A stretch of 64,000 bases of DNA from Ardenticatenaceae bacterium (GCA_020634215.1 JACKCD010000019.1:30975-94974); one strand, 5' to 3'. Shown: positions 4,313 to 56,640, counted from the stretch's first letter. Notes: generated by a model not told the origin, from the sequence alone. Numbers and translations are program-made.

Positions 4313-6055
4313 TTACTTAACGCTATCTGGCTTTGCTTCAATTAGCTCATACCAAACGTGAATTTTTGCCTGCCCGTGGCTTTCAAAGTAATCAACGTAG
4401 AGCGTGTGTTCCCCATCAAGGAAGAGATCAATGGCGTAGGGAGCGGAGCCATCATTGGAATGCCACTCGTCAATGACCTGTAAGTTGTCCACGGCGACCC
4501 GCACGCCATCATCCGCTTGGGCGTAGAGGCGATAGATGCCGGGGGTGAAAGTGAGCGTGCGTACCCAGCGAGCCGAGAATTCGTCGGTGGGCAGAGCCGG
4601 GAAGGGGGCCTGTTCGCCCCAGTTGAAATCAATGTCGGTGTCGTTGCGGACAAAAGCAGGCGTACCGGCCAAATATCTGTTGGCCCAATATTCACCGCGC
4701 CAGTCGGTATAGGGGGTTGTTTCTTCCCACCACAGTTGAATTTGGGCAATGCCCTGGGCTTCATAAAACTCTACCTGGATGAAGTGATTGCCGGCCGTCA
4801 GAGCAACATCAGCAGTGTAGGTGCTGCCATCGGCATCGTGCCATTCATTCAGCCGCAGTACGCTGTCAATCCAAAGCCGAACGCCGTCGTCGCTGTGGAC
4901 ATAGAAGCGGTAGTCACCTTCGGCAAAGTACAAGCTGCGCGTCCAGCGTGCCGAGAAGTTGTCGGCAGGTAGGGCAACTGCTGGTGGGTCAAAACCCCAG
5001 TTGAAATCAACGCCCGTATCATCACGAACCAACCCCGGTGTGCCACTGAGCGAGCTGTTGGCAAAGTATTCGCCGCGCCAGTTGTAGATGGTGGGCACGG
5101 GAACCGGTGTGGGTGTGGGGGTAGGCGGTGACGGTACAACGATGCGGACGTAGCACCGTTCGCCAACGGCCGTTCCGTTGGGCAACCTCAGCGACCAGTA
5201 GCCAGTGTAGGTACCGGGGGTGCTGGGGGCAATCAGATAAACGGAAACGTCAGCCGTTTCTCTAGGATTGGTGGCGGCAACGGGGATAGAAGTGGAGCCG
5301 CTCATCAGGTTGCCAGCGATAAAGACCCAACTGGTTCCGGCCGGCCAGGCGCAGTTGCCGCTGTTGCGGATACGCCAGGTTTTGAGGAAGCCAACGCCCG
5401 GTTGTACGGTGGTGTCATCGGGAATGCTCATGTCGGCAACAAAGTCCATGTCATAGGTGCAGGTTGGGGTTGGGATGGGTGTCGGGGTGGGAGTAGGGGT
5501 TGCCGTGGCCGTGGGAATGGGAGTAGGGGTGGGTGTAGGCGGCAGAGTAGCGACTTCGGTGGGGGGAATGGGTTGGGATTGGAGAGCAAAAACGGCCGTT
5601 GCTGCTCGTTCGCTGCTGGTGGACTGGGCGACAATGTGAACATCGGGCAAGCTGCGCCATTCAATATCGGTGGGGAACGTAAACGAAACAAAGAACAGCC
5701 CCGTTTCGTTGGCCGTTGCTTGGGCAATGACGGGTGGCTCACTGTTGCTGCCCAGATCATCCAGATAAAGCTGTACGGTCTCATTGGCTGCCCAGCCGGT
5801 ACCCCAAACGGCAATATTGATGCCAGCACTGCCGCTGGTGGGCGAAATCTGGATTTTTTGTTCGGTGGTGATGGCTGCGCTGCTAGGAACGGCCGTTGCC
5901 ACAGGTGCTGGCGCAAACAAACTATCCCACTGCTGGATGAGCATGGTCAGGACGATGCTCAGCAAGACAAACAGGACAGTCAGCAGCAATGCCCAGCCCC
6001 AGGGGAAGCCAAAACGGCCGTTTTGTTCACTGTGTGGTAAACGATTGGTTGTCAA
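4313..6055 (-). CDS. Membrane-anchored secreted protein: N-terminal TM anchor, Pro/Thr linkers, NBR1-like Ig domain, two PA14 domains
   Basis: 580 aa, TTG start with GGAGGGA RBS. Anchor QNGRFGFPWGWALLLTVLFVLL. PTPTPTP linkers. Two repeats of WRGEY(F/W)AN...DFNWG...FSARW...DDGVR typical of PA14. Confidence 0.75.
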   Translation of the reverse strand: MTTNRLPHSEQNGRFGFPWGWALLLTVLFVLLSIVLTMLIQQWDSLFAPAPVATAVPSSAAITTEQKIQISPTSGSAGINIAVWGTGWAANETVQLYLDDLGSNSEPPVIAQATANETGLFFVSFTFPTDIEWRSLPDVHIVAQSTSSERAATAVFALQSQPIPPTEVATLPPTPTPTPIPTATATPTPTPTPIPTPTCTYDMDFVADMSIPDDTTVQPGVGFLKTWRIRNSGNCAWPAGTSWVFIAGNLMSGSTSIPVAATNPRETADVSVYLIAPSTPGTYTGYWSLRLPNGTAVGERCYVRIVVPSPPTPTPTPVPVPTIYNWRGEYFANSSLSGTPGLVRDDTGVDFNWGFDPPAVALPADNFSARWTRSLYFAEGDYRFYVHSDDGVRLWIDSVLRLNEWHDADGSTYTADVALTAGNHFIQVEFYEAQGIAQIQLWWEETTPYTDWRGEYWANRYLAGTPAFVRNDTDIDFNWGEQAPFPALPTDEFSARWVRTLTFTPGIYRLYAQADDGVRVAVDNLQVIDEWHSNDGSAPYAIDLFLDGEHTLYVDYFESHGQAKIHVWYELIEAKPDSVK

Positions 6056-6242
6056 CGCTCGTCCCTCCGAGCGGAGGAAGGAATTTTACTTCCGTGCGCT
6101 CAATAACTTGTGGGTGTTGATAGGAAGTAGCTGTGGAGGGAGAAGAGGCAAGAACGGTAAACTTGTTCACAGCGGATCAACCTCTGACCGCGAAGCCTAC
6201 CAAGCCCACCTTTATTATGCGACAGAAAACACCTTCCTTCTA

Positions 6243-6288: not shown

Positions 6289-8001
6289 TCATTCTGGTTT
6301 TCTAGCGGGGAGTGGCTGCAAAATGAGATTAACGGCCGTTAATTCCCCCAACTCTACCCTGGCACTCACGGAAACGGTGTTGTAGCCTTTGACTGAGCTA
6401 GTGAGGGTATACTGCCCAGCCAGCAGTGGCAGATTGAATTGTCCGCTGGCATCGCTGATGACTTGAACCGTTGCCCCATTGGGCGTGGTCAATGCTAGGG
6501 GTGCTTCCGGCAGCGGCACACCGTCGGCATATAGGGTGCCTTGCAGCCGCCCGGTGAGCATTTGGCTGGCAACGGCGGCGTAGGCATCTAGCCGACCGCA
6601 GCCGCTGATGCAGGTGGTTGGCATAACGGCCGTTTGTGTTAGCACATCAATCAGTTCCTCAGGCAATAAGGTGGGGTTGGCTGACAGCAGTAGTGCTGCT
6701 GCGCCGCTGACGTGGGGTGCCGCCATCGAAGTACCAAAAAAGGTGCGGTATTGGTTGTTGGGGTAGGTGGAATAAACGGCCGTTCCCGGTGCCATTAACT
6801 CCGGTTTGTTATCGTCGGTAAAGTTGGAAGAGCCACGGCTGGAAAACCAAACCATCGTATCGCCCACATCGCAAGCACCAACGGCCAGAACAGTGCCATA
6901 GCTGGCCGGTGCGCCAATAGCCGTTGGCAGTGGGCCACTGTTGCCACTGGCAAAGATAGGCAAAATGCCACCTGCTTTTAGTGCTACTAAATCAGGTGCA
7001 AAAAGGGTGAGATCGGCCGCGCCCGACCAGGAACCGTTGACAATATCAGGAGCCAGGCTGGGGTCGCTGTTAGGTGCCAGCAGCCATTCAAACCCGGCGT
7101 GAACGGCACTGGTGACAATGAGATTGTCGGCATTGGTGATGTTGACGGCAATCCAGCGGGCGGCGGGAGCTACACCGATGCCATCTTGCCCAACGGCCGT
7201 TCCCGCCACGTGCGTTCCATGCCCCATCACATCAGTCGGTTCGCGTAGCGACTGATTGGCCGGGGAATACCAACTAGCGCGGTGGTCAACGGTGCCGTTG
7301 GGGTTCAAGCCACGATAAGTAGGACGAAGTTGGGGATGGTTCCAATCCACGCCGCTGTCCATGATGGCAACCACCACCCCTTCGCCGCGCACGCCCAGCC
7401 CTTCCCACACCAACGGTGCGCCGACGTGCTGTACGCCCCAGGTAGGCAAGGTTTGGTCATCGGTGAAGATGGCGTGGGGCAGGCTGATGCTGTCAGGAGG
7501 GGCAAAGCCGCTAAAGGTAAGATCGGGCACAATAGCCCCGACGCTGGGCAGGGAGGCGATGAGGGGCAGAATGGTTGGGTCAACGGTGGCGGCAATGGCG
7601 TTGATGATCCAAAAGGGACGAATATTATCGGCCAAGCCAAGCCGTTTTTGTTGGGTGAGCAGGTTGAGTAGCGGTGTTTGCGTGGAAACGGCCGTTTTTT
7701 GCAAGCCGTCAATGATAATCTGTCGCCGTTCCGTTTTATCGTTTGGCAGTTTGGTTGAGTCTATGCTTGTTTGCCGCGCCAGGTAGATGATAATGGGGGT
7801 AGGGTCGGTAGCTTGAGCCAGGGCGGACGCATATTTGTTGGTGCTAGATGAAACGGCCGTTTGTTCAGTCGCCAGCCAATTTTCCACCCGCTGCACGATG
7901 GCCGAAGCGGTTAGCCCCAGCAGTAGCAACAGTACTACCCAGCCCCATGGAAAGTAAAAACGGCCGTTTTGATTAGCTTGCGGTACAGTGTGAGTTGTCA
8001 T
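6289..8001 (-). CDS. Subtilisin-like S8 serine protease with N-terminal TM anchor, I9-like propeptide and C-terminal CarboxypepD_reg-like domain
   Basis: 570 aa. Catalytic triad motifs AIMDSGVD (Asp), HGTHVAGT (His), GTSMAAPHVSG (Ser). Anchor QNGRFYFPWGWVVLLLLL. Confidence 0.9.
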   Translation of the reverse strand: MTTHTVPQANQNGRFYFPWGWVVLLLLLGLTASAIVQRVENWLATEQTAVSSSTNKYASALAQATDPTPIIIYLARQTSIDSTKLPNDKTERRQIIIDGLQKTAVSTQTPLLNLLTQQKRLGLADNIRPFWIINAIAATVDPTILPLIASLPSVGAIVPDLTFSGFAPPDSISLPHAIFTDDQTLPTWGVQHVGAPLVWEGLGVRGEGVVVAIMDSGVDWNHPQLRPTYRGLNPNGTVDHRASWYSPANQSLREPTDVMGHGTHVAGTAVGQDGIGVAPAARWIAVNITNADNLIVTSAVHAGFEWLLAPNSDPSLAPDIVNGSWSGAADLTLFAPDLVALKAGGILPIFASGNSGPLPTAIGAPASYGTVLAVGACDVGDTMVWFSSRGSSNFTDDNKPELMAPGTAVYSTYPNNQYRTFFGTSMAAPHVSGAAALLLSANPTLLPEELIDVLTQTAVMPTTCISGCGRLDAYAAVASQMLTGRLQGTLYADGVPLPEAPLALTTPNGATVQVISDASGQFNLPLLAGQYTLTSSVKGYNTVSVSARVELGELTAVNLILQPLPARKPE

Positions 8002-10031: not shown

Positions 10032-13000
10032 ATGAAACAGCGTCTGGTCATCTTGCTGCTTGCCACCCTTGCTCCGCTTACCCTGCTGGCCGTGTTTTTG
10101 TTGTGGTCGCCAACGGCCGTTTTTGCCACCACCACCAAATACGACCCCACCCTTGCCCAAAGCCCGAACCCCGTTTCCGTCATCATCTACCTGCAGCAGC
10201 AGGCCGATTTGCCGCCGCAGCGCAGCGGCAGCCGTTTGGCACAGCGGGTGGCAGTGGTGGAGGGGTTGCAACAAACGGCCGTTTCCAGCCAAACCCCTCT
10301 CCGCAACCTACTCACCCGGCAGCAGCAAGCCGGACTTGTCGCTGATATTCATCCCTTCTGGATTGTTAACGCCATCGCCGCCACCGTAGACCCCGCCGCC
10401 TTGCCCGCTATTGCCGCCCTGTCCAGCGTCAGCCATATTCTCCCAGATGTCGCCTTTGACGGTTTTGCCCCTCCTGCTAATGCTCCCGAACCGGCCGTCC
10501 CGGTGACAGAAACGGCCGTTTTGCCCACCTGGGGCGTAGAGCGCATTGGGGCACCGCTGGTGTGGGACGGGCTGGGCGTGCGCGGCGAAGGGGTGGTGGT
10601 TGCCATCATGGACAGCGGCGTGGATTGGAACCATCCCCAACTTCGTCCTACTTATCGTGGCTTGAACCCCAACGGCACCGTTGACCACCGCGCCAGTTGG
10701 TACTCCCCCGGCAACCCGCTTTTGCGCCAGCCCACCGACGTGGTGGGGCATGGCACCCACGTGGCAGGAACGGCCGTTGGGCAAAGCGGTATCGGTGTTG
10801 CACCCGCCGCCCGCTGGATCGCCGTCAACATCGCCAACCCCGATGGCCTTATTCTCACCAGTGCCGTCCACGCCGGGTTTGAATGGCTGCTGGCACCGGG
10901 TGGCGACCCCAGCCTTGCTCCTGATATTGTCAACGGCTCCTGGTCGGGGGCAGGCAACCTTGATTTATTTTTGCCCGATTTGGCGGCGCTGCGGGCGGGC
11001 GGCATTTTGCCTGTCTTTGCCAGCGGCAACAACGGCCCCTTCCCTGAAACCATTGGTGCCCCCGCCAGCTACCCCACCACGCTGGCCGTGGGTGCCAGTG
11101 ACGACATTGACGCGCTGGCTTGGTTTTCCAGCCGTGGCCCGTCATTTTTTACCCCTGAACCCAAGCCGCAGTTGGTGGCACCGGGAACGGCCGTTTTTTC
11201 CACCTTCCCCGACAACCAATACCGCACCTTTCTCGGTACTTCGATGGCTGCGCCCCACGTCAGTGGCGCGGCGGCGCTGCTGCTCTCGGCCAATCCCGCC
11301 CTTTCGCCGGATGATCTCACCCGTGTGCTGCTGCAAACGGCCGTTGCCATCACCACCACCCACCCCAACTTTGACAGCGGTTGGGGGCGGCTGGATGTCT
11401 ATGCCGCTGTTGCCAGCCAGCTTGCCACCGGGCGGCTGCGCGGCACCGTGCGCGGCAATGGCCTGCCGCTGCCCAACGTGCCGCTAACCCTAACCACCCC
11501 CAGCGGCGCGGCTTTGCCATTTGCCAGCGACGACAGCGGCCAATTTGAATTGTCGTTAGTGGCTGGTGGCTACACCGTCGCTGCCGCCCCCTTTGGCTAT
11601 GCCCCTGCCCAAACCAGTGTCACGGTACAGCTTGGGCAAACGGCGGTTGCCGATTTGAATGCGACCCCACTGCCCGGCGGCACGGTTCAGGGGCAAATTC
11701 GCAGCGGGGGGCAACCGCTGACGGCGACGGTGCAGGTGGTGGGGTTGCCGGTGGCGGTGAGGACGGATGAAAACGGCCGTTATGCCCTCACCCTTCCCAG
11801 CGGCAGCTACCAGCTTGCAGTACACGCCCACGGCCATGAACTGGGTAAAGCGTCGCTCACGCTGGCCGTCGGCCAAGTGCTGACCCGCAATTTTGATTTA
11901 GCGGCTGCCCCCACCGTGCTGCTGATTGACAGCGGCCAATGGTATTACCAAAGCTATGCCCGTTATTACGATGAGGCGCTGCTGGCGGCTGGTTTTGACC
12001 ACGACACCGCTACCATCCGCAACCCGTTTGCCGATGTACCAACGCTGGAACAGGTGCAACCCTACGACGTTGTCATCTGGTCGGCACCCCACGACGCGCC
12101 GGGCCGGGTGGCGGCCAACGATGTCATCACCGATTATTTGAAAACGGGGGGGAATTTGCTGATTAGCGGAGAGAATGTGGCCTATTACGACGGGCAGGGG
12201 TTTGGCACGCAGCCGTGGTTTTTCCGCAATCTGGGAGCACTGTTTGATGGGGAGCAGGAGGGAGAAACGGCCGTTTCCAGCCTGCCTGCCACCCCCTTTG
12301 CTGGGATGACGCTGGCACTGAACGGCGGCGACAGTGCCAACAACCAGGCGACTCCCGACAACAGCCGCCTGCGCGAAAATGTGCTGACGCGCCCCGTTTT
12401 GCGCTATACCGACGGCCACACCGCCGGGCTGCTGGCGGGTCATTGCGCCCCGTACCAACTCATTTATTTGGGTTTTGGGTTGGAAGGGGTGCGCCGTGCG
12501 GATGACCGCGCCGAACTGCTGCGGCGCAGCTTTGCCCACTTTGCCGACCCGCTAGTGCAGCAGGGTTTGCAGCTTACGCCCGGCCGCGTGGACGATTTTG
12601 CCATTGCCGGTGACGAACTGGTCTACACCATCACCGTGCGGAACCTGAGCGAGGCGGTGACGGAGACGGTTGACATCTTGCTCAGCGGCGGCAGTTGGCC
12701 GACGACGCTGCTAACCCCGACGCTGACGCTGGGGCCGTGCCAAATGGGGGAGACGGTGCTGCGGCTGGCGGTGCCGCCGGATGTGGGGCGGGATGTGGTG
12801 CATGAGATGGTATTAACGGCCGTTTCCCGCCAAAACCCCGGCAACCGTATCGAACTTCCCGTTCGCCACAAAACCCCCGGCCGCTTCTTGCTGGTGGACG
12901 ATGACCGCTGGTTTGATCAACAGCGCACTTTTCTGGCAGCGTTGGCGGGTAATGGTATTGTCCCCGACGTGTGGGAGATTGGCGGCAGCCCGGCGGTGCG

Positions 13001-35540: not shown

Positions 35541-35574
35541 AGAAGTTCAACTTCTTCTGAGAAGTTGAACTTCT
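35541..35574. repeat. 34-nt perfect hairpin element, copy 1 (AGAAGTTCAACTTCT-TCTG-AGAAGTTGAACTTCT)
   Basis: 15-bp perfect arms, 4-nt loop. 18 nt upstream of the minus-strand start at 35522. Confidence 0.9.
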
Positions 35575-35751
35575 CAAATATAAGTGCAATTATAGGACAA
35601 TTTGGTGGAATTGCCCTACAAACGGCCGTTTTCATTAGGCGTTTATCTAACAAAATGTTATCCTATCCTCACACGCTGTCAAAACGTTGAACCCCATCAC
35701 GCACCTTGACGGCCGTTTTATTAACCCCTTGTCCCACGTAAGGAGGAACGA

Positions 35752-42858: not shown

Positions 42859-44967
42859 TTAAACGGCCGTTGGCAACGTCAAATTAAACTGTGCCCCGCC
42901 CCCCGGCGCGTCATCTACCCAAATCTGCCCCCCATGGGCTTCCACGGCCAACCGACAAAACGCTAGTCCCAGCCCCAGCCCCTTTGACGACGTTTCGTCA
43001 TCCTTAATCCGCTGGAATTTTTCAAAAATCGTTTCGCGGTACCCCTTGGGAATCCCCTCTCCCTCATCGCTTACTGACAGGAAAAGCATGTTTTCCTTCT
43101 TGTCATCCCGCCGTGCCACAATGGTGATCCGCTTGTTGTCCAGGCTGTGCTTAATGGCATTGTCTACCAAATTGACCAGTACCCGCTGAATCATATCCTC
43201 TTCAATCCGCAGATGAGGAATGTCAGGCTCGATGTTGCTGGTAAAGACAATTTCCCGGCGTTCCAGATTGGGTGATTCAATTTCGTAAACATCCTCAATC
43301 AGCTTTTGCACCGGCACCTGCTTTAGCTCACGCACCGGGCTGCCCGCTTCCAGCCGGTCAATGTCCAGCAGTGAGCGGATGAGGGATTGCAGGTGATGAC
43401 TGCTGCGCTTGGCAATATCGAGCATGGACAGGAGGCTTTCGTCGCTGTCGGCCGGCATTTGGAATTTGATGAGTTCCAGGCTGGCGATGACATTGCCCAG
43501 CGGGCTTTGCAGGTCGTGGAACAGCATGGCCGTCAGGTCGCGGCGCATCTCTTCCAGTTCCACCTGTTTGGAAATGTCGTGGTGAATCCACTGAATCATG
43601 TCGTGGTCGCCAAAGCTGGTGCGCTTGGCGTAAATTTCCACGTGGATGGGGTGGCGATCCTTGGGTAGTGCCTGGCTGGTAAAAACGCGCACGCTGTCGC
43701 CACGTACCTGCTTGGCGGGGGGCAGGGTGGTGTCTGGCGGGTGCAGCTCGGAAATGTGCAGCCCAATCAGACTGTCGCGTGTGTAGCCAAAGAAGTTGAT
43801 GGCGCGGCGGTTGGCTTCCACAATATAGCCATCGAGGTCGGTGAGCAGAATGGGATCTACGCTGCCTTGGAAGAGGCTTTGGTAGCTGGCCTGGGCGGCC
43901 TGGGTGCGGGCAAACTGTTGGGCGTTGGCAATGGCGCTGCTGGCGATGTTGGCAAGGTTGATAAGGAGGTCGAGGTCTTCTTGGGTAAAACGGCCGTTAA
44001 TCGGATTAATCGCCTGAATCGTTCCCCACACCTCTCCCTTCGACTGTACTGGCGCACATAGCATGGCTCGCGTCACCGCTCCGGTGCGTTTGTCACCCAA
44101 ACGACCAAACCTCGAATCCTGGCTGGTGTCATTGACAATAAGTGGCTCGCTATGCTCCATCACCCAACCTGAAATGCCTTGGTTAGACGGCAGCCGCAGC
44201 CCCACGATCTTGTCGCTGCCCAGCCCTTCAGCCGTGCGGTAAACCAGTTCGTTGGTTTTCTTATCCACCAGCGCAATCGAAATGGCTTCGGCGTTGAGCA
44301 ACTCATTCATCTGCGTCAGCAAATGCTGCATAATTTCGTTAATATCGAGCGAGGAGTTAATAACCGAGCTGGCTTCCCGCAGCAGGTTGGTAATTTGAAG
44401 CTGCCGTATGGACTTTTCGTAAAGCCGCGCGTTTTGGATGGTGCTAGCCGTCAGACTAGAAATGGCGCTCAGCAGACTGAGGTCGCTGTCATCAAACTGG
44501 CTGGTGCCCGGTTTGTGAACGGTGATCGCTCCAATGGCCTGATTCCGCACCACAAACGGGGTACACATCACCGACAAGGATTCGACCGGGTACTTGTCGT
44601 CTGGCCGTGGCAGCCAGCGGCTGTCGTTGAGCGTATCGTGGATGACGCTTGGTTCCCGATTGCGAATGACCCAACCAGCTAGCCCATTGTGAATAATATC
44701 GCTTAGAAAAAGGGTAAATTGTTTGTTACTGTACTGGTCGTTGGCTAACCAGGCGTGCTCAACTTCTAGCTGCTCATCCACAACAATGATGCTGCCATCG
44801 CGGGCATCGAGTTGTTTGACGGCTACCTTGAGCACACGCGGTAAGATGGTGTTGATATCCAACCCATCAGCCGCGATTTGGTTGAGCATGTCGTTGACGA
44901 GATAGAGGGTTTGCAGCCGTTCGCTGTCTTTGACTTCACTTAGGAGTTCTGGATTCATTGTTTCCAT
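42859..44967 (-). CDS. GAF-GAF-PAS sensor histidine kinase
   Basis: 702 aa. H-box MLFHDLQSPLGNV. HATPase_c boxes LVDNAIKHS, DEGEGI, GLGLGLAF. Confidence 0.9.
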   Translation of the reverse strand: METMNPELLSEVKDSERLQTLYLVNDMLNQIAADGLDINTILPRVLKVAVKQLDARDGSIIVVDEQLEVEHAWLANDQYSNKQFTLFLSDIIHNGLAGWVIRNREPSVIHDTLNDSRWLPRPDDKYPVESLSVMCTPFVVRNQAIGAITVHKPGTSQFDDSDLSLLSAISSLTASTIQNARLYEKSIRQLQITNLLREASSVINSSLDINEIMQHLLTQMNELLNAEAISIALVDKKTNELVYRTAEGLGSDKIVGLRLPSNQGISGWVMEHSEPLIVNDTSQDSRFGRLGDKRTGAVTRAMLCAPVQSKGEVWGTIQAINPINGRFTQEDLDLLINLANIASSAIANAQQFARTQAAQASYQSLFQGSVDPILLTDLDGYIVEANRRAINFFGYTRDSLIGLHISELHPPDTTLPPAKQVRGDSVRVFTSQALPKDRHPIHVEIYAKRTSFGDHDMIQWIHHDISKQVELEEMRRDLTAMLFHDLQSPLGNVIASLELIKFQMPADSDESLLSMLDIAKRSSHHLQSLIRSLLDIDRLEAGSPVRELKQVPVQKLIEDVYEIESPNLERREIVFTSNIEPDIPHLRIEEDMIQRVLVNLVDNAIKHSLDNKRITIVARRDDKKENMLFLSVSDEGEGIPKGYRETIFEKFQRIKDDETSSKGLGLGLAFCRLAVEAHGGQIWVDDAPGGGAQFNLTLPTAV

Positions 44968-45156
44968 AGACCAAAATTAGACAATACGTATTCCACTACG
45001 ATGTTGTGATGATGAAGAATGTTTGATGATGACTCTCACGATACTGCTGCAATTGACACATCCGTTTTCTACCCGTTAATTGTGTTCTGGTCAAGCATTT
45101 GCTTTTATTAAACAGCCATTTCACCATTTTGTTCGTAAAAATAAAGATATTTCTGT

Positions 45157-46179
45157 CTAAATGAGACGTAAACTAGGAGTCACATCCAGGTTAAGGGTAT
45201 CAAAACGGCCGTTTTTGAAAGCCCAATACGCGGCTGCCCCAATCATGGCCGCGTTGTCGGTGCAAAGGACGGGGGGGGGGTAGCGCACGGGCAAATCAAT
45301 TTGCTGGCTCATCGCCTGGCGTAGCGCCCGGTTGGCCGACACCCCCCCCGCCAGATGAACGGCCGTTACCCCATGTTCCTGCGCCGCCTGCACCGTCTTG
45401 CTCACCAGCGACTCCACTACGGCGGCCTGAAAGCTGGCGGCCAAATCATTCACAGGCAGACGGTTGCTTTCAAATTTTTTGGTTTGGCGCAAAACGGCCG
45501 TTTTCAGCCCGCTAAAACTAAAATTATACCCATGCTCGCTCTGCATCACGGCGCGGGGGAAGCGGTACGCCTGCGCGTTGCCCTGCGTCGCTGCCTTGTC
45601 AATGGCCGGCCCACCCGGATACGGCAGCCCCAGCAGCCGCCCCACTTTGTCAAACGCCTCACCCGCCGCATCATCCAGCGTCCCACCCAAATGCTCATAC
45701 ACCCCGTGGTCACGCATCAAATAAAGCTCGGTATGGCCGCCGCTTACCACTAGCGTCAGCAGCGGAAATTCAATCTCCGCCGCCGCTTCCGTTAGCCACA
45801 GCGAATAGATGTGGCCTTCGATGTGGTTGACCCCAATCAGCGGTTTGCGCCGCGCCAGCGCCAGCCCTTTGGCGGCGTTCACCCCCACCAGCAGCGATCC
45901 TACCAGCCCCGGCCCCTTCGTCACGGCAATGGCATCAAGGTCGTCATAGCCGATGTGGGCCTGCTGCATTGCCTGCCGAATGACGGCATAAATTAGCTCC
46001 ACATGCTTGCGCGAAGCCACTTCAGGAAAAACCCCGCCGTACTTAGCGTGTAAATCGGTTTGGCTGGCGATCACGTTGCTGAGCATCCGCGTACCGTTTT
46101 CAACCACGGCGGCGGCGGTTTCATCACACGATGTTTCTATCGCCAGAATGCGAATCATTTGTTTTTCGGGGGTGACCAT
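45157..46179 (-). CDS. tsaD: tRNA N6-adenosine threonylcarbamoyltransferase TsaD
   Basis: 340 aa. ILAIETSCDETAAAVV, GVNHIEGH and SGGHTEL motifs. Confidence 0.95.
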   Translation of the reverse strand: MVTPEKQMIRILAIETSCDETAAAVVENGTRMLSNVIASQTDLHAKYGGVFPEVASRKHVELIYAVIRQAMQQAHIGYDDLDAIAVTKGPGLVGSLLVGVNAAKGLALARRKPLIGVNHIEGHIYSLWLTEAAAEIEFPLLTLVVSGGHTELYLMRDHGVYEHLGGTLDDAAGEAFDKVGRLLGLPYPGGPAIDKAATQGNAQAYRFPRAVMQSEHGYNFSFSGLKTAVLRQTKKFESNRLPVNDLAASFQAAVVESLVSKTVQAAQEHGVTAVHLAGGVSANRALRQAMSQQIDLPVRYPPPVLCTDNAAMIGAAAYWAFKNGRFDTLNLDVTPSLRLI

Positions 46180-46303
46180 AGGGCTAATTCTATCCTTAAG
46201 GGTGGGCTTACGTGTAAAACAGATTACTTTTTGCTTGCAAAAGTACCCACAAAGTTCATAAAAATCTCATATAGATTTATCGAGGTTGTTTATGCTTGTT
46301 TGC

Positions 46304-46383
46304 AGATAGAGATTAGGAGACTCGGAGATTAAGAGATTATTGGATAGCCGTAGTCTCCCAGTCTCTTAGTCTCTCAATCTCCC
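46304..46383. repeat. Inverted array of GAGAYT-core 8-nt-period repeats
   Basis: Left arm GAGATTAG GAGACTCG GAGATTAA GAGATTAT. Right arm is the imperfect complement and overlaps the last 5 codons of selA. Confidence 0.75.
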
Positions 46384-47760
46384 ACACTGCTGGAGAATTG
46401 CTTGCAGCAGCGTCTCTTCCTGATTAGGCAGCACGGTGCGGGGGTCGAGGAGAAAACGGCCGTTTTGAATGCGCCCAATCACCGGTGGGTTGTTGCCGCG
46501 CAGCCGCGCAGCCAGTTCATCCGGGTTGGGGTGGGGCAGGGCCAGCAGCGTGGTGGGCAAGCTGGTGCCAGGCAATGAGCCGCCGCCGACGGTCGAACGG
46601 CCGTTAATCACCTCACACTCAATCCCGCTCTCTGCCAGTCGGGTTGCCCATTGCTCCGCCCGTGCCGTAATGGCAGCCAGCGGTGCCGCAATCATCTGCC
46701 ACACCGGAATCTGGGTCGTGGCTTGTTCCGCCGCATAATGGCGCAGCGTGGCCGCCAATGCTGCCAGACACAGCTTGTCAGCTCGCACCGCCCGCGCCAG
46801 CGGATGCCGCTTTAGCTGGGCGATCAGGTCGGCGCGGCCGCACAAAATGCCCGCCTGCGGCCCCCCCAGCAGCTTGTCGCCGCTAAACGCCACCACATCA
46901 CACCCGGCTTCCAACCCCTCCGTCACCGTCGGCTCTGGCTCCAGCCCATAGGGAGCCACGTCCAGCAGCGCCCCGCTCCCCTGGTCATAGAGCAGGGGCA
47001 ACTGGTGGGCGTGTGCCAGTTCGGCCAGTTCGGCCAGCGTTGGTTCGCTGGTAAAGCCGATGATTTTGTAGTTGGAGTGGTGGGCAACCAAAATGGCGGC
47101 GGTGTTGGCGCTGATGGCGTTGGCGTAGTCGCGCAGGTGGGTTTTGTTGGTGGTGCCAACTTCCACCAGCTTAGCCCCCGACTGCACCATCACGTCGGGG
47201 ATGCGGAAGCCGCCGCCGATTTCGACAAGCTGCCCCCGGCTGATGATGACTTCGCGCCCCTGGCAAAGGGTGGTGAGCATGAGCAGGACGGCGGCGGCGT
47301 TGTTGTTGACGACGAGGGAGGCGGCGGAGCCGGTAATCTGGTTGAGCAGTTGTTCGCCGTGGATGGTGCGGGAGCCGCGCTGTCCGGCTTCGGGGTCGTA
47401 TTCGAGGGTGGAGTAGGTGGAAGAAACGGCCGTTATTGCCGCCACTGCCCCCTCACTCAGCGGTGCCCGCCCCAAATTGGTGTGGACAATTACCCCCGTG
47501 CCGTTGATCACCGGTCGTAATGTGGCCCCAAACTGGTCGTCCAGCCACGCCTGCGCCAGCCCTAACAGGTCGCTGGCCGTTATGCTACCGTTCCCGCCGG
47601 ACAAAATGTGCTGTCGCCGCTGGTCAAGGGTATGGCGCAACGCTTCGGTGGTCAATAAACGGCCGTATTCCCCCACCAGCCCCTCCGCTTGCAGCAGCAA
47701 TTTGTCCACGCTGGGCAGGTGACGTAAAAGGGAGCGATTATTGGGGTTATCGTTGTTCAT
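46366..47760 (-). CDS. selA: L-seryl-tRNA(Sec) selenium transferase SelA
   Basis: 464 aa. N-terminal LRHLPSVDKLL. PLP-lysine region VAFSGDKLLGGPQAG. Confidence 0.9.
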   Translation of the reverse strand: MNNDNPNNRSLLRHLPSVDKLLLQAEGLVGEYGRLLTTEALRHTLDQRRQHILSGGNGSITASDLLGLAQAWLDDQFGATLRPVINGTGVIVHTNLGRAPLSEGAVAAITAVSSTYSTLEYDPEAGQRGSRTIHGEQLLNQITGSAASLVVNNNAAAVLLMLTTLCQGREVIISRGQLVEIGGGFRIPDVMVQSGAKLVEVGTTNKTHLRDYANAISANTAAILVAHHSNYKIIGFTSEPTLAELAELAHAHQLPLLYDQGSGALLDVAPYGLEPEPTVTEGLEAGCDVVAFSGDKLLGGPQAGILCGRADLIAQLKRHPLARAVRADKLCLAALAATLRHYAAEQATTQIPVWQMIAAPLAAITARAEQWATRLAESGIECEVINGRSTVGGGSLPGTSLPTTLLALPHPNPDELAARLRGNNPPVIGRIQNGRFLLDPRTVLPNQEETLLQAILQQCGRLRD

Positions 47761-47767
47761 ACGAGAG

Positions 47768-47838
47768 AGTAATCGGTAATCAGTAATCGGTAATCAGTGA
47801 CCTCGTTACTGATTACCGATTACCGATTACTGATTACT
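47768..47838. repeat. Inverted array of GTAATC-core heptamer repeats (long hairpin)
   Basis: AGTAATC GGTAATC AGTAATC GGTAATC AGT - loop - complement. Lies between the selA start and the stop of the upstream membrane-protein gene. Confidence 0.85.
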
Positions 47839-48310
47839 GTAGCTGTGCGGCCCGCGTGCGGACTTGCAGCAGAAATTCAAACAAAATAAAGACGACTGCT
47901 ACCAAAATGACGATGGCGATGCCGAGGGTGCGGTTCATTTGCAGCCAGGTACAGAAGGCGATCCACAGCCCCACCCACATCGCCTGCCGCAGCGTGAGCA
48001 GGAAGCCGGGGGTTTGGCTAGAGCCGCTGAACCGTTTGTTGAGGAAAAAGACAAAGGGCAGCACCAGCCCGGTGACGGCCACGAGGACGGCGGCGAGAAA
48101 GGCGAGGATGATTTCGCTGTTGGCGGCGGCCATCAGGGTGGGGGCATCAATGGTGCCTTGCGCCGTAGCCCGCACCAAATCCAGCCGCTCCACGTCAAAC
48201 GGCCACCAGTTGTCCACAATGTGGTTGAGCGACAGCAGCCCCAGCCCCAGCAGGCTGAGGCCAAACAGCAGGGAGGGGATGACGCCGAGGCGGGTGAGGA
48301 ATCCTTTCAT
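47834..48310 (-). CDS. Small integral membrane protein of unknown function
   Basis: 158 aa with four hydrophobic segments. No motif recognised. The same-length plus-strand ORFs are shadows. Confidence 0.55.
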   Translation of the reverse strand: MKGFLTRLGVIPSLLFGLSLLGLGLLSLNHIVDNWWPFDVERLDLVRATAQGTIDAPTLMAAANSEIILAFLAAVLVAVTGLVLPFVFFLNKRFSGSSQTPGFLLTLRQAMWVGLWIAFCTWLQMNRTLGIAIVILVAVVFILFEFLLQVRTRAAQLQ

Positions 48311-48395
48311 AGGGGTGATTATACTTGAGTAGGGGCGTATTGCATACGCCCTTATCCCTTTCCCGCAATTCTCAGTTTAGCCCACGCCTTTGGCA

Positions 48396-48560
48396 GGGGC
48401 GGGATGACCGGGGGTAAAGCTGGCAACGCCGCTGGCCTTTTCTCCCGGTCGTCTCGCCCATGTATTGTCCAAACACACCGTTTTCGGCCACCACAAGGGC
48501 GAGACGGCGCGGAGACAGCACCATTTGTTCACCTTGCGCTTATCCGCGCCATCCCGCCCC
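48396..48560 (+). ncRNA. Candidate structured RNA or DNA element: perfect four-way junction (cloverleaf) of unknown class
   Basis: P1 48396-48406/48550-48560 (11 bp). P2 48407-48414/48442-48449 (8 bp, one G-U). P3 48450-48459/48497-48506 (10 bp). P4 48507-48513/48543-48549 (7 bp). The helices abut with no unpaired junction nucleotides. Confidence 0.45.
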
Positions 48561-48657
48561 CACCCTTAGCTGGCCCTTTGAACCGGATTTTTGGGGTTGA
48601 AAGCGCGGCTACAACCTGCTAGACTGCTGCCAACCAAACCGCCAGAGGCACTGCCCG

Positions 48658-51600
48658 ATGAACGACCGCGACATTATCCAGCAGATTGAACAGATTTTAG
48701 ACCGCCGCCTGTTTTTGAAGCCATACGAGCCAGACAAGCTGCGCGGAAAGAAAAGCTTCTGCCTCAACGAGGCGGGGCAGGTCATTCACCTCGGTCTGCC
48801 CCAGTGTGGCCTCAATGATGCCCTTATCAGCCAACTTTCCCCCATGCTCCAACAGTTGGGGCAGCTACAGACGCTCTCTTTAAGGAATAACCAAATCAGC
48901 GACCTCTCGTTTTTGTCGGGGCTGGGGCAGCTACAGACGCTCGATTTAAGTTCTAACCCAATCAGCGACCTCTCGTTTTTGTCGGGGCTGGGGCAGCTAC
49001 AGACGCTCGATTTAAGTTCTAACCCAATCAGCGACCTCTCGTTTTTGTCGGGGCTGGGGCAGCTACAGACGCTCGATTTAAGTTCTAACCCAATCAGCGA
49101 CCTCTCGTTTTTGTCGGGGCTGGGGCAGCTACAGACGCTCGATTTAAGTTCTAACCCAATCAGCGACCTCTCGTTTTTGTCGGGGCTGGGGCAGCTACAG
49201 ACGCTCGATTTAAGTTCTAACCCAATCAGCGACCTCTCGTTTTTGTCGGGGCTGGGGCAGCTACAGACGCTCGATTTAAGTTCTAACCCAATCAGCGACC
49301 TCTCGTTTTTGTCGGGGCTGGGGCAGCTACAGACGCTCGATTTAAGTTCTAACCCAATCAGCGACCTCTCGTTTTTGTCGGGGCTGGGGCAGCTACAGAC
49401 GCTCGATTTAAGTTCTAACCCAATCAGCGACCTCTCGTTTTTGTCGGGGCTGGGGCAGCTACAGACGCTCGATTTAAGTTCTAACCCAATCAGCGACCTC
49501 TCGTTTTTGTCGGGGCTGGGGCAGCTACAGACGCTCGATTTAAGTTCTAACCCAATCAGCGACCTCTCGTTTTTGTCGGGGCTGGGGCAGCTACAGACGC
49601 TCGATTTAAGTTCTAACCCAATCAGCGACCTCTCGTTTTTGTCGGGGCTGGGGCAGCTACAGACGCTCGATTTAAGTTCTAACCCAATCAGCGACCTCTC
49701 GTTTTTGTCGGGGCTGGGGCAGCTACAGACGCTCGATTTAAGTTCTAACCCAATCAGCGACCTCTCGTTTTTGTCGGGGCTGGGGCAGCTACAGACGCTC
49801 GATTTAAGTTCTAACCAAATCAGTGACCTCTCGTTTTTGCAGCATTTGCCTGCTTTGGAACAGGTTGATCTGGCTAAAAACAAGTTAACAGAGCTGCCAG
49901 CCTGGATCACCGAAAAGGGGTTGGGCATTGATGTAATCAGTAAATACGGTGGCAATCACGGGGATATTAGGCTGGCTGAAAATCCCATTGCCACGCCGCC
50001 GCTGGAAATTGTGCAGCAGGGCAAGGCGGCCATCCGCGCCTACTTCCGTTCGCTGGAAGGGCAAGAAACGGTGCAGCTCAACGAGGTCAAGCTGCTGCTG
50101 GTGGGGGAAGGGATGGCCGGCAAAACGTCGCTGCTCAAGCGGCTGCAGGGGCTTCCCTTTGATGCCCAGGAGTCGCAAACCCACGGCATCAACGTGGTCA
50201 CGCTCCCCGCCGCCAGCATCAGCGGGCTGGAAGCCCACGCCGACCTGGCCGAATGCCAGCTCCACTGCTGGGATTTTGGCGGGCAGGAAATCATGCACGC
50301 CTCACACCAATTCTTCCTCAGCCAGCGCGCCCTCTACATCCTCGTCATTGACAGCCGCACCGACGACAAAAAGCACCACTGGCTCAAGCATATCGAAAAA
50401 TTTGGCGGCAAATCCTCTCCCCTCATCGTCGCCATGAACAAAATGGATATCAACCCTGGCTACAACGTCGAGCAAAACAGCCTCAACAGCAGCTTTCCCA
50501 GCATCAAAAACCGCTTCGTCCGCCTCTCCTGCCACACCGAGGCTGGCCTGCCCGACCTCATCCACCACATCGCCGCCGCCATCCCCGAAACCTCCCTCTT
50601 TGGCAGCCCGATCAGCGTCGCCTGGATGAACGTCAAAAACCAGCTTGAACGGGAAACAGCCTCCAAACGGTACATCAGCCAAGCTCGCTTTCTCGCCATC
50701 TGCCAGGAGAACAACGTCCACGACCGCGACAGCCAGCAAACCCTCCTGCAATACCTCCACGATCTCGGCATCGTCCTCTATTTCAAGCAGCTCAACCTCG
50801 CCAGCATCTACGTCCTCGACCCCCACTGGGTCACCATCGGCGTTTACAAAATCATCAATTCCGAAAAGGTGGTTGAAGGGCGGCTGCAAGAAAGCGACCT
50901 CGACTACATTCTCAACGAGGAGCCGATCAAAAAGCAAGAATATGACCCGGCCAGCAAGCAAAGCATTCGCTACAGCCTCGACGAACAACGCTACATCCTC
51001 AACATCATGCAGCAGTTTGAACTCTGCTACCTCTATAACGAGCGACGGCGCGAATACATCATCCCCAGCCAGCTTCCCAAAGAGATCAACAGCGAGCCAA
51101 ACCTGGATGAAGGTACCCCGCTGCGCTTTATCATGCGCTACGACTATCTGCCTGCCACCATCATCCCGCGCACCATGATTGACTTCAGAAACGACATCGA
51201 GCCGGGGCAGCAGTGGCGTTTTGGCATGGTGCTCCAAAACTCCAGCACCCAGTGCCGCGCCAAAATCAAGGCCGATGAGCAGAAAAAGTCCATCGAGATC
51301 ACCGTGCAGGGGGAAGCCCACCGCAAGCGGGAATATTTTGCCATCATCCGCCACACCCTGCGCGACATCAGCAGCGAATTTGAAAATTTGCAGATTGAGG
51401 AGTGGATTCCGCTGCCCGGCCACCCCGACTTTTTGGTTGAGTACCAGGTGCTGCTGGGGCATGAGCAGGAAAAGCGGGAGGAATATTTTGACGGCAAGCT
51501 GCGCAAGAGCTTCCCCGTCTCCCAACTGCTGGACAGCGTCATCAGCCCCGCCGACCGCCAGCGGGATAGCCATTTGTTAAACGACATGCTGCGCGATGCC

Positions 51601-52119
51601 AAAATGGTGAACTTTGGGACTTACTATGCGGGGGAACATCATGAGGGAGACAGAACGCAGGTGGGCGACATTACCGAGGCCACCGGAATAGCTGTTGGCA
51701 GAAAGAGCCGGGCCAGCGTGGGCAGCAGCCTCCCGCCCACCCCGCCCCCGCTGACAGAAGCAGAGCAAGCGGAGCTGGCTGCCCTCGCCACCCACAAACA
51801 ACTGCTTGAGCGCCCCCTGCGGCTGTGGGCGCGGGTGGCAGCGGTGGGGTATGTGCTGCTGTATGTGGGGTTGCTGCTGCTGGTTTGGTGGCTGCTCAAC
51901 AAGCTGGTGGCGTGGCAAAGCTGGGACACGCTGGAGCCGTATACGTGGATTGTAAGCGTGGTGATGGCTCTGGCCGCACCGCTGCTCGTCTGGTTGGCTC
52001 CAGACCGGCTTAGCCCATACGCGCTGAGGGATTGGCTATTTGCGCGGCTGCAGCGGCGCAGCTTTGAGAAACATGGGTTCAAGCTGGAACGGTATGAGGC
52101 ACTGCGGGCAAGGGTGTAG
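48658..52119 (+). CDS. ROCO protein: LRR array, Roc GTPase, COR domain and a C-terminal two-helix TM region
   Basis: 1153 aa. 22-aa LRR units LQTLDLSSNPISDLSFLSGLGQ. Roc motifs GEGMAGKTS, WDFGGQE, NKMD. C-terminal hydrophobic helices VAAVGYVLLYVGLLLLVWWLL and WIVSVVMALAAPLLVWLA. Confidence 0.85.
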   Translation: MNDRDIIQQIEQILDRRLFLKPYEPDKLRGKKSFCLNEAGQVIHLGLPQCGLNDALISQLSPMLQQLGQLQTLSLRNNQISDLSFLSGLGQLQTLDLSSNPISDLSFLSGLGQLQTLDLSSNPISDLSFLSGLGQLQTLDLSSNPISDLSFLSGLGQLQTLDLSSNPISDLSFLSGLGQLQTLDLSSNPISDLSFLSGLGQLQTLDLSSNPISDLSFLSGLGQLQTLDLSSNPISDLSFLSGLGQLQTLDLSSNPISDLSFLSGLGQLQTLDLSSNPISDLSFLSGLGQLQTLDLSSNPISDLSFLSGLGQLQTLDLSSNPISDLSFLSGLGQLQTLDLSSNPISDLSFLSGLGQLQTLDLSSNPISDLSFLSGLGQLQTLDLSSNQISDLSFLQHLPALEQVDLAKNKLTELPAWITEKGLGIDVISKYGGNHGDIRLAENPIATPPLEIVQQGKAAIRAYFRSLEGQETVQLNEVKLLLVGEGMAGKTSLLKRLQGLPFDAQESQTHGINVVTLPAASISGLEAHADLAECQLHCWDFGGQEIMHASHQFFLSQRALYILVIDSRTDDKKHHWLKHIEKFGGKSSPLIVAMNKMDINPGYNVEQNSLNSSFPSIKNRFVRLSCHTEAGLPDLIHHIAAAIPETSLFGSPISVAWMNVKNQLERETASKRYISQARFLAICQENNVHDRDSQQTLLQYLHDLGIVLYFKQLNLASIYVLDPHWVTIGVYKIINSEKVVEGRLQESDLDYILNEEPIKKQEYDPASKQSIRYSLDEQRYILNIMQQFELCYLYNERRREYIIPSQLPKEINSEPNLDEGTPLRFIMRYDYLPATIIPRTMIDFRNDIEPGQQWRFGMVLQNSSTQCRAKIKADEQKKSIEITVQGEAHRKREYFAIIRHTLRDISSEFENLQIEEWIPLPGHPDFLVEYQVLLGHEQEKREEYFDGKLRKSFPVSQLLDSVISPADRQRDSHLLNDMLRDAKMVNFGTYYAGEHHEGDRTQVGDITEATGIAVGRKSRASVGSSLPPTPPPLTEAEQAELAALATHKQLLERPLRLWARVAAVGYVLLYVGLLLLVWWLLNKLVAWQSWDTLEPYTWIVSVVMALAAPLLVWLAPDRLSPYALRDWLFARLQRRSFEKHGFKLERYEALRARV
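48901..49758 (+). repeat. 13 perfect tandem copies of a 66-bp unit (in-frame LRR repeats), flanked by diverged copies
   Basis: The unit start GACCTCTCG recurs at 48901 + 66n for n = 0 to 13. The 14th unit has two substitutions (NQISD). Confidence 0.9.
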
Positions 52120-52129
52120 CAGTTGCGTT

Positions 52130-53263
52130 TCAGGCTCTTTTCATTTCGAGCGCAGATAACGGGAGGCCAAAAAAGTGGGCAAGCTGGGTGGCGTAGTGGG
52201 AAACGGTTTCTGTCAACCTTTCCCCACACCATTCCTCAAACAGTTCCACCGTAACACCAATCCCGCTGTCTGACCGATCATACCGCCAGGTTCCCACAAT
52301 GCGGCCATGCTCCAGCACAACCCCCTCAATGTGCCCGGCCGGCCGCCACACCCGTTTGTAATACGCCATATCAATCAGCCAACTTTTTTCCCGGTGCCCC
52401 AGCAGCAGCGGTTCAAAGCGGTAAAGCAGCCGAATCGGCCACGCTTCCCGTTCCGGCGGCGTTTCGGCCATCGCCTCCAGGTCGGAGAGCAGTGCCAGCA
52501 TTGGCGTTCCCGCCGCGTCCAATTCCACCACCCCCTCGCCCAGTGCCTTCAGCCAGCGGCGAATGTCGCTCAGATTACGGCCGCGCCAATAGCCAATGTC
52601 CTGCACCGTGGCCGGGCCATAGGCGTGGAGAAAACGCCACACCAGCTCAATGTTGGCTGCCTCGGCGTTGGGCGGTACCCATTTCAGGTCGGGTAGCCAA
52701 TAGTCGCGGTGGGCAAACAGCCCCTCGCTGCCGTCCCGCCCAGCGTGGCAGGCGTGGCCGCGATAGACCAAATCGCGGAAGATGCCGCCCCAGGCGGAAA
52801 AAAGATCGCCGTGAACATCCAAATCGCTGTCGCGCAGGTCGCTGCGCCCCATGATTCCCCGTTGCCGCAGCAGTTCGGCCAAATCGGCCACCAATTGCTG
52901 GTATTGGGCGTGGTCTACGCCGCTTTTCACCGCCCGCAGCTCTTGCCACGCCACTTCCAAAGGCATGGCAGCGTGGATGAGCGCCCATTCACGGCTGGTG
53001 TAAAGATGGAGCGTTTGCCGCTGCCCCCATAGCTTGACCAAGCTGCGTTCGGTAAACAGCATCTCTTCAAAGCGGGCGTAGGTTAACCCGGTGGTGCGGT
53101 TCCACAGGGAAATGGCGGCGGCGGGGAGGATTTGGGCTTGGATGCCAGCGAGGGTGGAAACGGCCGTTGTGACAGCTTCTGTCAACACCCCATCAAACGG
53201 CTTCACCAGCCCCGACCGCCGCAGCCGAAACCAGCGAATTTGCGCTTCTGTCAGTCGAATCAT
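52130..53263 (-). CDS. Winged-helix DUF1006 (HTH_42) protein, AlkZ/YcaQ-family DNA glycosylase-like
   Basis: 377 aa. N-terminal MIRLTEAQIRWFRLRRSGL. A QxQ motif in LAGIQAQILP. Overall family resemblance only. Confidence 0.6.
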   Translation of the reverse strand: MIRLTEAQIRWFRLRRSGLVKPFDGVLTEAVTTAVSTLAGIQAQILPAAAISLWNRTTGLTYARFEEMLFTERSLVKLWGQRQTLHLYTSREWALIHAAMPLEVAWQELRAVKSGVDHAQYQQLVADLAELLRQRGIMGRSDLRDSDLDVHGDLFSAWGGIFRDLVYRGHACHAGRDGSEGLFAHRDYWLPDLKWVPPNAEAANIELVWRFLHAYGPATVQDIGYWRGRNLSDIRRWLKALGEGVVELDAAGTPMLALLSDLEAMAETPPEREAWPIRLLYRFEPLLLGHREKSWLIDMAYYKRVWRPAGHIEGVVLEHGRIVGTWRYDRSDSGIGVTVELFEEWCGERLTETVSHYATQLAHFFGLPLSALEMKRA

Positions 53264-53276
53264 TGGACGTTACAGA

Positions 53277-53310
53277 AGAAGTTCAACTTCTTTTGAGAAG
53301 TTGAACTTCT
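53277..53310. repeat. 34-nt perfect hairpin element, copy 2 (loop TTTG)
   Basis: AGAAGTTCAACTTCT-TTTG-AGAAGTTGAACTTCT. 13 nt upstream of the minus-strand start at 53263. Confidence 0.9.
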
Positions 53311-53437
53311 AAATAGGTATTTGCAAGGCCAGGAGGGTCTGGTTGTTAGCCTGGTAGCCAACGAGGAAATAGTTGTCAATCATAGGGTGTAGCTTAAGGA
53401 AATTATCCACCTGCTCAAAATAAATTGCAATGAGAGA

Positions 53438-56554: not shown

Positions 56555-56578
56555 GAGCGACTGGATAATGAGTGATTT

Positions 56579-56612
56579 AGAAGTTCAACTTCTTTGGAGA
56601 AGTTGAACTTCT
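56579..56612. repeat. 34-nt perfect hairpin element, copy 3 (loop TTGG)
   Basis: AGAAGTTCAACTTCT-TTGG-AGAAGTTGAACTTCT. 24 nt upstream of the recQ start at 56554. Confidence 0.9.
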
Positions 56613-56640
56613 TGCTTACCTATGGTTGAATGATGACTTA

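Follow-up and report, generated by a model that had tools for sequence, protein, structure and literature searches.

The 165-nt structure at 48396-48560 (plus strand) is very probably a copy of a REP/REPIN/BIME-type repeat, non-autonomous, palindromic and tagged with GTAG, for whose copying a RAYT, a REP-associated tyrosine transposase, is most likely responsible. Positions given without a contig name refer to the window, the whole 64-kb stretch of DNA that was analysed. The core of the repeat is predicted, by folding and by a covariance model, to form a four-way junction (4WJ). Systems of the REP/REPIN-RAYT kind are known; a tagged stem that encloses three hairpins as a gap-free 4WJ was not found in the REP catalogue and appears to be a new architecture. 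This reading would add uncultured Anaerolineae to the hosts of REP/REPIN-RAYT systems, work on which has been confined almost entirely to Proteobacteria. It would also remove a false lead: what looked like a striking, orphan riboswitch-like fold before a ROCO gene would be mobile-element DNA.

The structure and its locus

The closing helix P1 (11 bp; 48396-48406 with 48550-48560, arms GGGGCGGGATG and CATCCCGCCCC) encloses three further helices, namely P2 (8 bp with one G-T/U pair; 48407-48414 with 48442-48449, arms ACCGGGGG and CTCCCGGT), P3 (10 bp; 48450-48459 with 48497-48506, arms CGTCTCGCCC and GGGCGAGACG) and P4 (7 bp; 48507-48513 with 48543-48549, arms GCGCGGA and TCCGCGC), all given on the plus strand. 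The hairpin loops of P2, P3 and P4 measure 27, 37 and 29 nt, no nucleotide is unpaired at the junction, and the 3′ end lies 97 nt before the start codon of the ROCO gene (ATG at 48658) on the same strand. Every number and coordinate that the initial annotation had given for the helices, the loops and the distance to the gene proved correct. Its description of the structure as exceptional was borne out as well. The 4WJ is the minimum free energy (MFE) structure in all four tests made with ViennaRNA (RNA and DNA parameters, each strand), and in a comparison with 200 dinucleotide shuffles per test, which the annotation had proposed, no shuffle folded as well (0 of 200 in each of the four). With RNA parameters the plus strand reaches -92.2 kcal/mol (z = -8.41) and the minus strand -94.2 kcal/mol (z = -6.35); with DNA parameters the z-scores are -5.80 for the plus strand and -6.39 for the minus strand. 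The structure is far beyond chance. The annotation had also taken the single G-U pair to favor a plus-strand transcript, a weak argument because the two strands fold equally well.

The window copy is intergenic, lying in a 347-nt spacer between two divergent genes: one for a 158-aa protein with no Pfam match (47834-48310, minus strand) and the ROCO gene, of LRR-Roc-COR organization (48658-52119, plus strand). The 158-aa protein served as the query for orthologous loci, and, judging by its homologues, the organism belongs to Chloroflexota of the Promineifilaceae/Ardenticatenaceae kind. A comparison of homologous intergenic regions had been suggested in the annotation as a way to look for conservation; upstream of the 158-aa gene, the element is absent in four relatives (95, 91, 80, and 78% protein identity). 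The 4WJ is therefore not conserved as an orthologous element of this intergenic region. The closest relative (L003, from WBZL01/GCA_009612995.1) matches the window at 44001-48333 and at 52165-53265 with 84-87% identity, and between 48333 and 52165 it shows no match and carries a 2-hydroxyacid dehydrogenase gene instead. The lineage-specific segment at 48334-52164, which comprises a REP cluster and the ROCO gene, replaces that gene. Two short same-strain contigs (L001 and L002) are identical across the structure and so give no covariation signal. The first, a metagenome contig (ERZ27309380 k141_7657), ends at window position 48446, inside P2, as expected if the repeat breaks assemblies, which such repeats probably do.

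A small hairpin of classical REP-like form, GTAG followed by GGGCGTAT-TGC-ATACGCCC, lies at 48329-48351 (plus strand) and is unique in the window. It starts at the left synteny breakpoint (48333/48334), stands as an insertion in the alignment with L003, from which it is absent, and recurs about 70 nt upstream of a 4WJ copy in another contig (L014). Because both a 4WJ copy and this second, simple REP are present, the spacer appears from its sequence to contain a small cluster resembling a BIME, on the border of the ROCO cassette. The repeat unit also reaches beyond the junction. A left extension, GCAATTCTCAGTTTAGCCCACGCCTTTGG (48364-48392, plus strand), which begins GCAATTCTCAGTTT, is common to copies in the MAG BC3.16 and in assembly WBZL01; it is part of an outer inverted repeat, CAGCAATTCTCAG...CTGAGAATTGCTG, which L014 and L048 retain in full but which has decayed on the right side in the window. 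BLAST similarity between the window and the BC3.16 copies spans about 48362-48567.

The slot beside the 158-aa/selA/tsaD block is occupied by the ROCO segment in the window (48334-52164), by the 2-hydroxyacid dehydrogenase gene in L003 (2982-3977), by SNF2/PLD next to an MmeI-type methyltransferase in L009 (62-3925), and by an nSTAND1 ATPase in L012 (816-3767), and it looks like a hot spot in the style of a defense island. A TATAAT box within 48311-48333 (minus strand), conserved in relatives, has its end 7 nt upstream of the start codon of the 158-aa gene, whose mRNA may for that reason be leaderless.

The element might now serve its host as a module, whether as a cruciform or protein-binding site, as an insulator or terminator, or as the donor of the ROCO -35 box. 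We consider this unlikely; it would be compatible with an origin in a REP/REPIN-RAYT system. The sole sigma-70-like site in the region (one found, 0.2 expected) is a candidate promoter of the ROCO gene at 48597-48625 (plus strand), TTGAAA-17-TAGACT with a TG extension, a match to consensus only, which is downstream of the 4WJ and upstream of the ROCO ATG. The position of the element between two divergent promoters is in keeping with a host module, and the TTGAAA hexamer lies in window sequence similar to the outer flank of the L014 copy (TGGTTGGCAATGG...). E. coli REP/BIMEs, moreover, are reported to bind IHF and gyrase and to affect mRNA decay (PMC2817692, PMC3479197, PMC3733652). The resemblance at the -35 box is weak, however, at about 13 of 19 bases, and none of the relatives examined has the copy in this intergenic slot, so that the 158-aa gene has no need of it.

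A dispersed repeat family in Anaerolineae

The reading of the element as a REP/REPIN-type repeat rests in the first place on its relatives. A scan of one genome per GTDB species with the pattern GGGGCGGGATG-N(125-155)-CATCCCGCCCC returned 38 loci, 27 of which have the full architecture, an outer stem followed by three abutting hairpins. A covariance model built from 26 family copies added one more, giving 28 full copies in 10 MAGs of Chloroflexota (Anaerolineae), hosts that are Promineifilaceae/Ardenticatenaceae-like. BC3.16 carries six copies and a seventh found by the model, Dive96_bin10.74 five, bin30017 four, S146 and binchicken_co256_207 three each, and five other MAGs one each. These per-genome numbers (at most seven) are lower bounds, as they come from an exact-match scan, and so far they stand far below the hundreds typical of classical REPINs. 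Unit length ranges from 147 to 177 nt across the family. Raw ORF calls (at least 150 aa) do not span most of the other copies, and several overlap them in part. The model scores the window copy at 140.8 bits on the plus strand and 108.9 bits on the minus strand; neither the model nor searches with the arms found a further copy in the 64-kb window, which thus holds one only. In annotation, the same model could be used to mask these repeats in Chloroflexota MAGs.

Matches of the first scan in Phenylobacterium, Microbacterium, Actibacterium, Myxococcales, Gemmatimonadaceae, Eisenbacteria, and others score at most 25 bits or are unseen by the model, and were set aside as chance. Those in Pyrinomonadaceae, at 22-32 bits, were assigned to a different repeat family. 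The acidobacterial Pyrinomonadaceae MAG T4R1BO (L017, L021, L027, L033) has its own multi-copy palindromic repeat, which begins with the same 11-mer (GGGGCGGGATGTTTATAG...); one copy of it lies 2.3 kb from a Roc-like GTPase gene, probably by coincidence.

A second scan covered metagenomes and was keyed on P3 and P4 only; among the first 80 loci listed, seven are true members of the family (L092, L107, L113, L064, L124, L105, and L069). In L113 (UOEU01000699.1, 1-416), at least three 4WJ units form a head-to-tail array with a period of 159 nt, joined by CTACGTGATCTGGTTGGGG. L092 is another contig of WBZL01, and its copy is about 82% identical to that of the window, including some 30 nt of the left flank. 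In WBZL01 the repeat is absent at the syntenic site (L003) and present elsewhere (L092), as a mobile repeat predicts.

Tags, target sites, and the associated transposase

In most copies the ends of the unit read GTAG-GGGCGGGA... and ...TCCCGCCC-CTAC. Among the flanks of 27 copies, most have GTA directly before GGGGCGGGATG and TAC directly after its complement, and these tags lay outside the search pattern of the first scan. In the 26-copy alignment, the G of the 5′ tag is invariant, the A is found in 26 of 26 copies and the T in 21 of 26. The window copy has C in place of this T. Its 5′ tag is thus a degenerate GCAG (48393-48396, plus strand), the last G of which is the first base of P1, and its 3′ tag is CCAC (48560-48563, plus strand) in place of the CTAC of the family, which is GTGG on the opposite strand. 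In E. coli, binding and cleavage are both lost as soon as one base of GTAG is changed (PMC3479197); by this analogy the window copy may no longer move, since each of its two tags is point-mutated.

A direct target-site duplication was found at none of the 27 copies. Instead, the inverted symmetry extends into the bases beyond the repeat, as GTA...TAC and often as TCGTA...TACGA.

Copies of the repeat also flank a transposase gene. In L035, a gene of 187 aa (5356-5919, minus strand) lies between 4WJ copies at 5120-5284 and 5970-6134, which are 850 bp apart. Its product scores 82.6 bits on the NCBIfam model NF047646, ‘REP-associated tyrosine transposase’ (cut-off 80) as against 21 bits with the IS200 model (cut-off 55), matches Pfam Y1_Tnp, and has E. 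coli TnpA_REP (4ER8) as its only PDB relative. Its NHVHV aligns to the E. coli HUH motif H59-M60-H61 and its YIADN to Y115...N119 of 4ER8, the roles of the residues in the HUH motif and of the Tyr and Asn of the catalytic helix (helix D) being taken from PMC3479197. RAYT genes are likewise flanked on both sides in L051 (gene at 1487-2044, copies at 1153-1325 and 2118-2290; 93.5% identity to the L035 protein) and in L039/L047 (63% identity). This makes three loci in two genomes, and the orientation of the element relative to the RAYT gene is the same at all three. BC3.16 has two RAYT copies, which are 93.5% identical to each other. No RAYT gene was found in the 64-kb window. The REPtron arrangement, GTAG REPs, and their presence in Chloroflexi have been described (PMC3733652).

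These data bear on a different kind of mobile element. A conventional MITE, the deletion derivative of a DDE-type IS moved by cut-and-paste through terminal inverted repeats of 11-14 bp, would account for the terminal inverted repeats, the length of 147-177 bp, the dispersed multiple copies, and the palindromic build of the family. It is nevertheless very improbable, given flanks that show no target-site duplication and continue the inverted symmetry, and given that the only transposase beside copies, at three loci, is a Y1 HUH enzyme of RAYT type; nor did a non-systematic look reveal any longer element with the same ends.

Four-way junction and long hairpin

Covariation, which the initial annotation had suggested as a check, was scored on the copies of the GTAG-tagged family, and there are compensatory changes in P2 and P3. 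In the 26-copy alignment, 93.3% of the cells of the 4WJ pair, versus 45-52% after a shift of the partners by 1-3 columns. At seven pairs both bases change; the foot of P2 is ACC.../...GGT in some copies and GGG.../...CCC in others, and position 2 of P3 occurs as A-T, G-C or T-A. The covariation score is 0.107 versus 0.044 in shuffles (0 of 500 reach 0.107), and RNAalifold, unaided, returns the same four helices. A 34-copy alignment, made by adding eight copies found without any constraint on the outer arms, is 91.7% paired and has a covariation score of 0.116 versus 0.060. Moving the junction by 2 bp gives an equally good fit (91.5% paired, score 0.123), and because in many copies the four dinucleotides next to the junction are compatible with one another, the 4WJ should be able to branch-migrate. 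P1, on the other hand, hardly varies, and its single mismatches are uncompensated; this points to sequence-specific recognition of P1, not to mere pairing.

P2 resembles the reverse complement of P4, which makes the unit a near-perfect large palindrome. The MFE structure of single sequences is an extended hairpin in 21 of the 26 copies with RNA parameters and in about 17 of the 26 with DNA parameters. This hairpin keeps P1 and P3 and cross-pairs P2 with P4. The window copy, L029, L031, L048, and L051 are among those for which the 4WJ is the preferred fold with at least one of the two parameter sets. Models of two adjacent hairpins and of an in-register long hairpin were also considered and are possible, but they fit the alignment less well than the 4WJ; in the in-register long hairpin, 25 of the 26 copies are unpaired at each of four positions. 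Both conformers seem accessible from the sequences, and the comparative data favor conserved local hairpins. The cloverleaf may be a by-product of nested palindromes, because the single-sequence MFE structure of most members is the extended hairpin.

We put forward, tentatively and as the more doubtful possibility, that the cloverleaf is itself the working form, in which case the family would be an undescribed class of RAYT substrate with a perfect, branch-migratable 4WJ in single-stranded DNA. The GTAG-tagged ends would then be held side by side, the DNA itself would provide synapsis, and both ends could be cut and rejoined by an HUH-Y1 enzyme acting as a monomer. This would answer how the two ends of a BIME are cleaved in coordination, a question raised for E. 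coli TnpA_REP (PMC3479197). If the transposase does use the 4WJ, the family would offer a natural system for the study of two-end coordination by HUH-Y1 enzymes.

In the mechanism that we propose for the REP/REPIN-type repeat, the unit would consist of two inverted halves around a central hairpin, with three internal hairpins between tagged ends, and a single strand could fold in two ways, as a perfect 4WJ that allows a 2-bp shift or as one long imperfect hairpin like that of classical REPINs. The near-invariant outer stem with its GTAG tags would be the probable module for recognition and cleavage, and the inner stems appear to be kept by compensatory change. A RAYT of the HUH-Y1 type would bind the tagged stem where the DNA is single-stranded, as at replication forks, and would cleave and rejoin the DNA while the closing helix holds the two ends together, so that the unit is copied. 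The copy in the window would be a resident, possibly immobile, in a divergent promoter region beside a simple REP hairpin. We infer mobilization by a RAYT through single-stranded DNA by analogy with the E. coli and IS200/IS605 paradigms (PMC3479197, PMC6006769), and the conformer used and the immobility of the window copy are likewise our inferences.

Relation to the ROCO gene

The statement of the initial annotation that no catalogued RNA matches the structure held in each search. Rfam 15, a scan that it had suggested, gave no match at the gathering score in the whole 64-kb window, and in E-value mode it gave only junk, sub-threshold miRNA hairpin models of at most 27 bits; ARAGORN found no tRNA and no tmRNA. 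Among the interpretations that it had offered, a DNA cruciform or recombination site comes closest to our own reading, and its headline proposal of a ROCO-linked leader or small RNA finds no support. A riboswitch-like cis-regulatory leader or a dedicated small RNA controlling the downstream ROCO gene is hardly credible: the fold is very stable, precedes the ROCO ATG by 97 nt on the same strand, has a sole G-U pair that is acceptable on the plus strand only, and is favored on the plus strand by about 30 bits in the covariance model, but a promoter-like site lies between the element and the ATG, Rfam has no match, the strands fold equally well, and the element belongs to a multi-copy family whose other members flank RAYT genes or adjoin unrelated genes, with no ROCO gene found near any of them. 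G-U cells number 16 in the 26-copy alignment (eight of them at one position), versus about nine A-C cells, a rough balance outside that position which suggests no clear strand bias. The element is near-symmetric under reverse complementation, which is typical of mobile DNA rather than of an RNA gene. The 4WJ probably lies outside the ROCO leader, and the element probably has no dedicated role in ROCO regulation.

Among the ROCO homologues, those with 90 and 64% identity are truncated and come from short contigs of 2.7 and 2.5 kb; those that follow show at most 64% identity over only three-quarters of the query. Small proteins were considered as well and rejected, as the ORFs at 48404-48622 (plus strand) and 48372-48524 (minus strand) translate to low-complexity, unconvincing sequence. 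Within the ROCO gene, 66-nt tandem units at 48725-49948 (15 overlapping 300-nt copies, most of them 98% identical) encode identical leucine-rich repeats of 22 aa, and the same-strain contig L002 ends inside this array, at window position 48923. The end of the ROCO protein has a membrane-spanning tail with a weak MCU-like match.

Other repeats and motifs

A palindromic decamer, AACGGCCGTT, occurs 85 times in the 64 kb (0.07 expected), both inside and between genes (for example at 298, 10112, 47425, and 53159). It resembles the HIP1 octamer of cyanobacteria, and it is also present in the P3 loop of several 4WJ copies (L014, L031, L048, L069). A literature search found no paper describing it as a genomic motif. 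Over the 5.7 kb at 47435-53158, which hold the ROCO cassette, the decamer does not occur, versus a window mean of one per 750 bp, and its absence suggests that the cassette is a recent foreign acquisition.

A family of palindromic repeats, AGAAGTTCAACTTCT-4 nt-AGAAGTTGAACTTCT, is found at 35541-35577, 53276-53314, and 56575-56613 of the window and at about 1733-1783 of L003. Between selA and the 158-aa gene lies an inverted repeat with 34-nt arms made of AGTAATCGGTAATC units (47768-47838), and BC3.16 has a similar stretch (L031, 2254-2321). A larger inverted repeat of 825 nt, 80% complementary and with its arms 3 kb apart, occupies 6625-7449 and 10521-11345.

Comparison with known systems

The family can be compared with the ends of IS200/IS605 elements and with their gene-less derivatives, the palindrome-associated transposable elements. 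By general background and PMC6006769, it would share with IS200/IS605 a Y1 HUH transposase that recognizes sub-terminal hairpins on one strand, transposition through single-stranded DNA without duplications, and an orientation fixed relative to the transposase gene. Unlike in IS200/IS605, the enzyme scores as a RAYT and not as an IS200 TnpA (82.6 versus 21 bits), no tnpB is adjacent, and complete palindromic units stand on both sides of the gene in place of distinct left and right ends.

The inverted terminal repeat of adeno-associated virus forms a T-shaped hairpin, a three-way junction, that is processed by the HUH endonuclease Rep. As in the family described here, an outer palindromic stem encloses smaller palindromes and a multi-way junction results, the processing enzyme is of the HUH superfamily, and both orientations of the element occur. 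The viral repeat differs in being part of a virus, in having a three-way junction, and in serving as replication origin and primer, and the two have no sequence relationship. This analogy, from general background, bears on how the element might work and not on what it belongs to.

The closest likeness is to the REP/BIME and REPIN sequences that, together with a RAYT (TnpA_REP), form the ‘REPtrons’ of Gammaproteobacteria such as E. coli and Pseudomonas fluorescens (PMC3116915, PMC3337134, PMC3479197, PMC2817692). Common to the family and gammaproteobacterial REPs are multi-copy palindromes with GTAG abutting the stem; common to it and REPINs may be two inverted halves that could form one long hairpin; and, as in REPtrons, a RAYT gene with HUH and Tyr is flanked by repeats on both sides. 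Target-site duplications are lacking here as in REP/REPIN, and clusters and tandem arrays occur as in REP/BIME (the array in L113, the two-element cluster in the window). The unit is longer, at 147-177 nt versus 20-40 nt for a REP or about 100 nt for a REPIN hairpin. Unlike REPs, it has three separate hairpins between its tagged arms, so that a perfect 4WJ is possible, and P2 and P4 stems that differ and give the unit polarity. The host phylum is Chloroflexota (Anaerolineae) in contrast to the Gammaproteobacteria of the REPtrons, copy numbers are so far low in comparison with classical REPINs (again as lower bounds), and BC3.16 has two RAYT copies where one per genome is usual.

The GTAG-tagged super-family of REPs described by Di Nocera et al. 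(2013) includes GTAG-23 of Thermomicrobium roseum, a member of the Chloroflexi, and composite ‘double palindromic’ TIRs adjoin some Pseudomonas RAYT genes (PMC3733652). With this super-family our repeats share the tag, including the degenerate GYAG and GTGG forms seen in the window copy, a stem of 5-13 bp that is rich in G+C and varies in a complementary manner from one sub-family to another, a tolerance of G-T pairs, the association with a tyrosine transposase, and the occurrence in Chloroflexi (PMC3733652). The catalogue contains no four-way or cloverleaf REP, and its loops measure 2-20 nt, whereas here the corresponding 143 nt are made up of three conserved hairpins (PMC3733652). A full-text literature search likewise found no paper on REPs or tyrosine transposases with the terms ‘four-way junction’ or ‘cloverleaf.’ With a GTAG stem, three hairpins, a gap-free junction, and a 2-bp shift, the architecture appears more elaborate than that of any catalogued REP.
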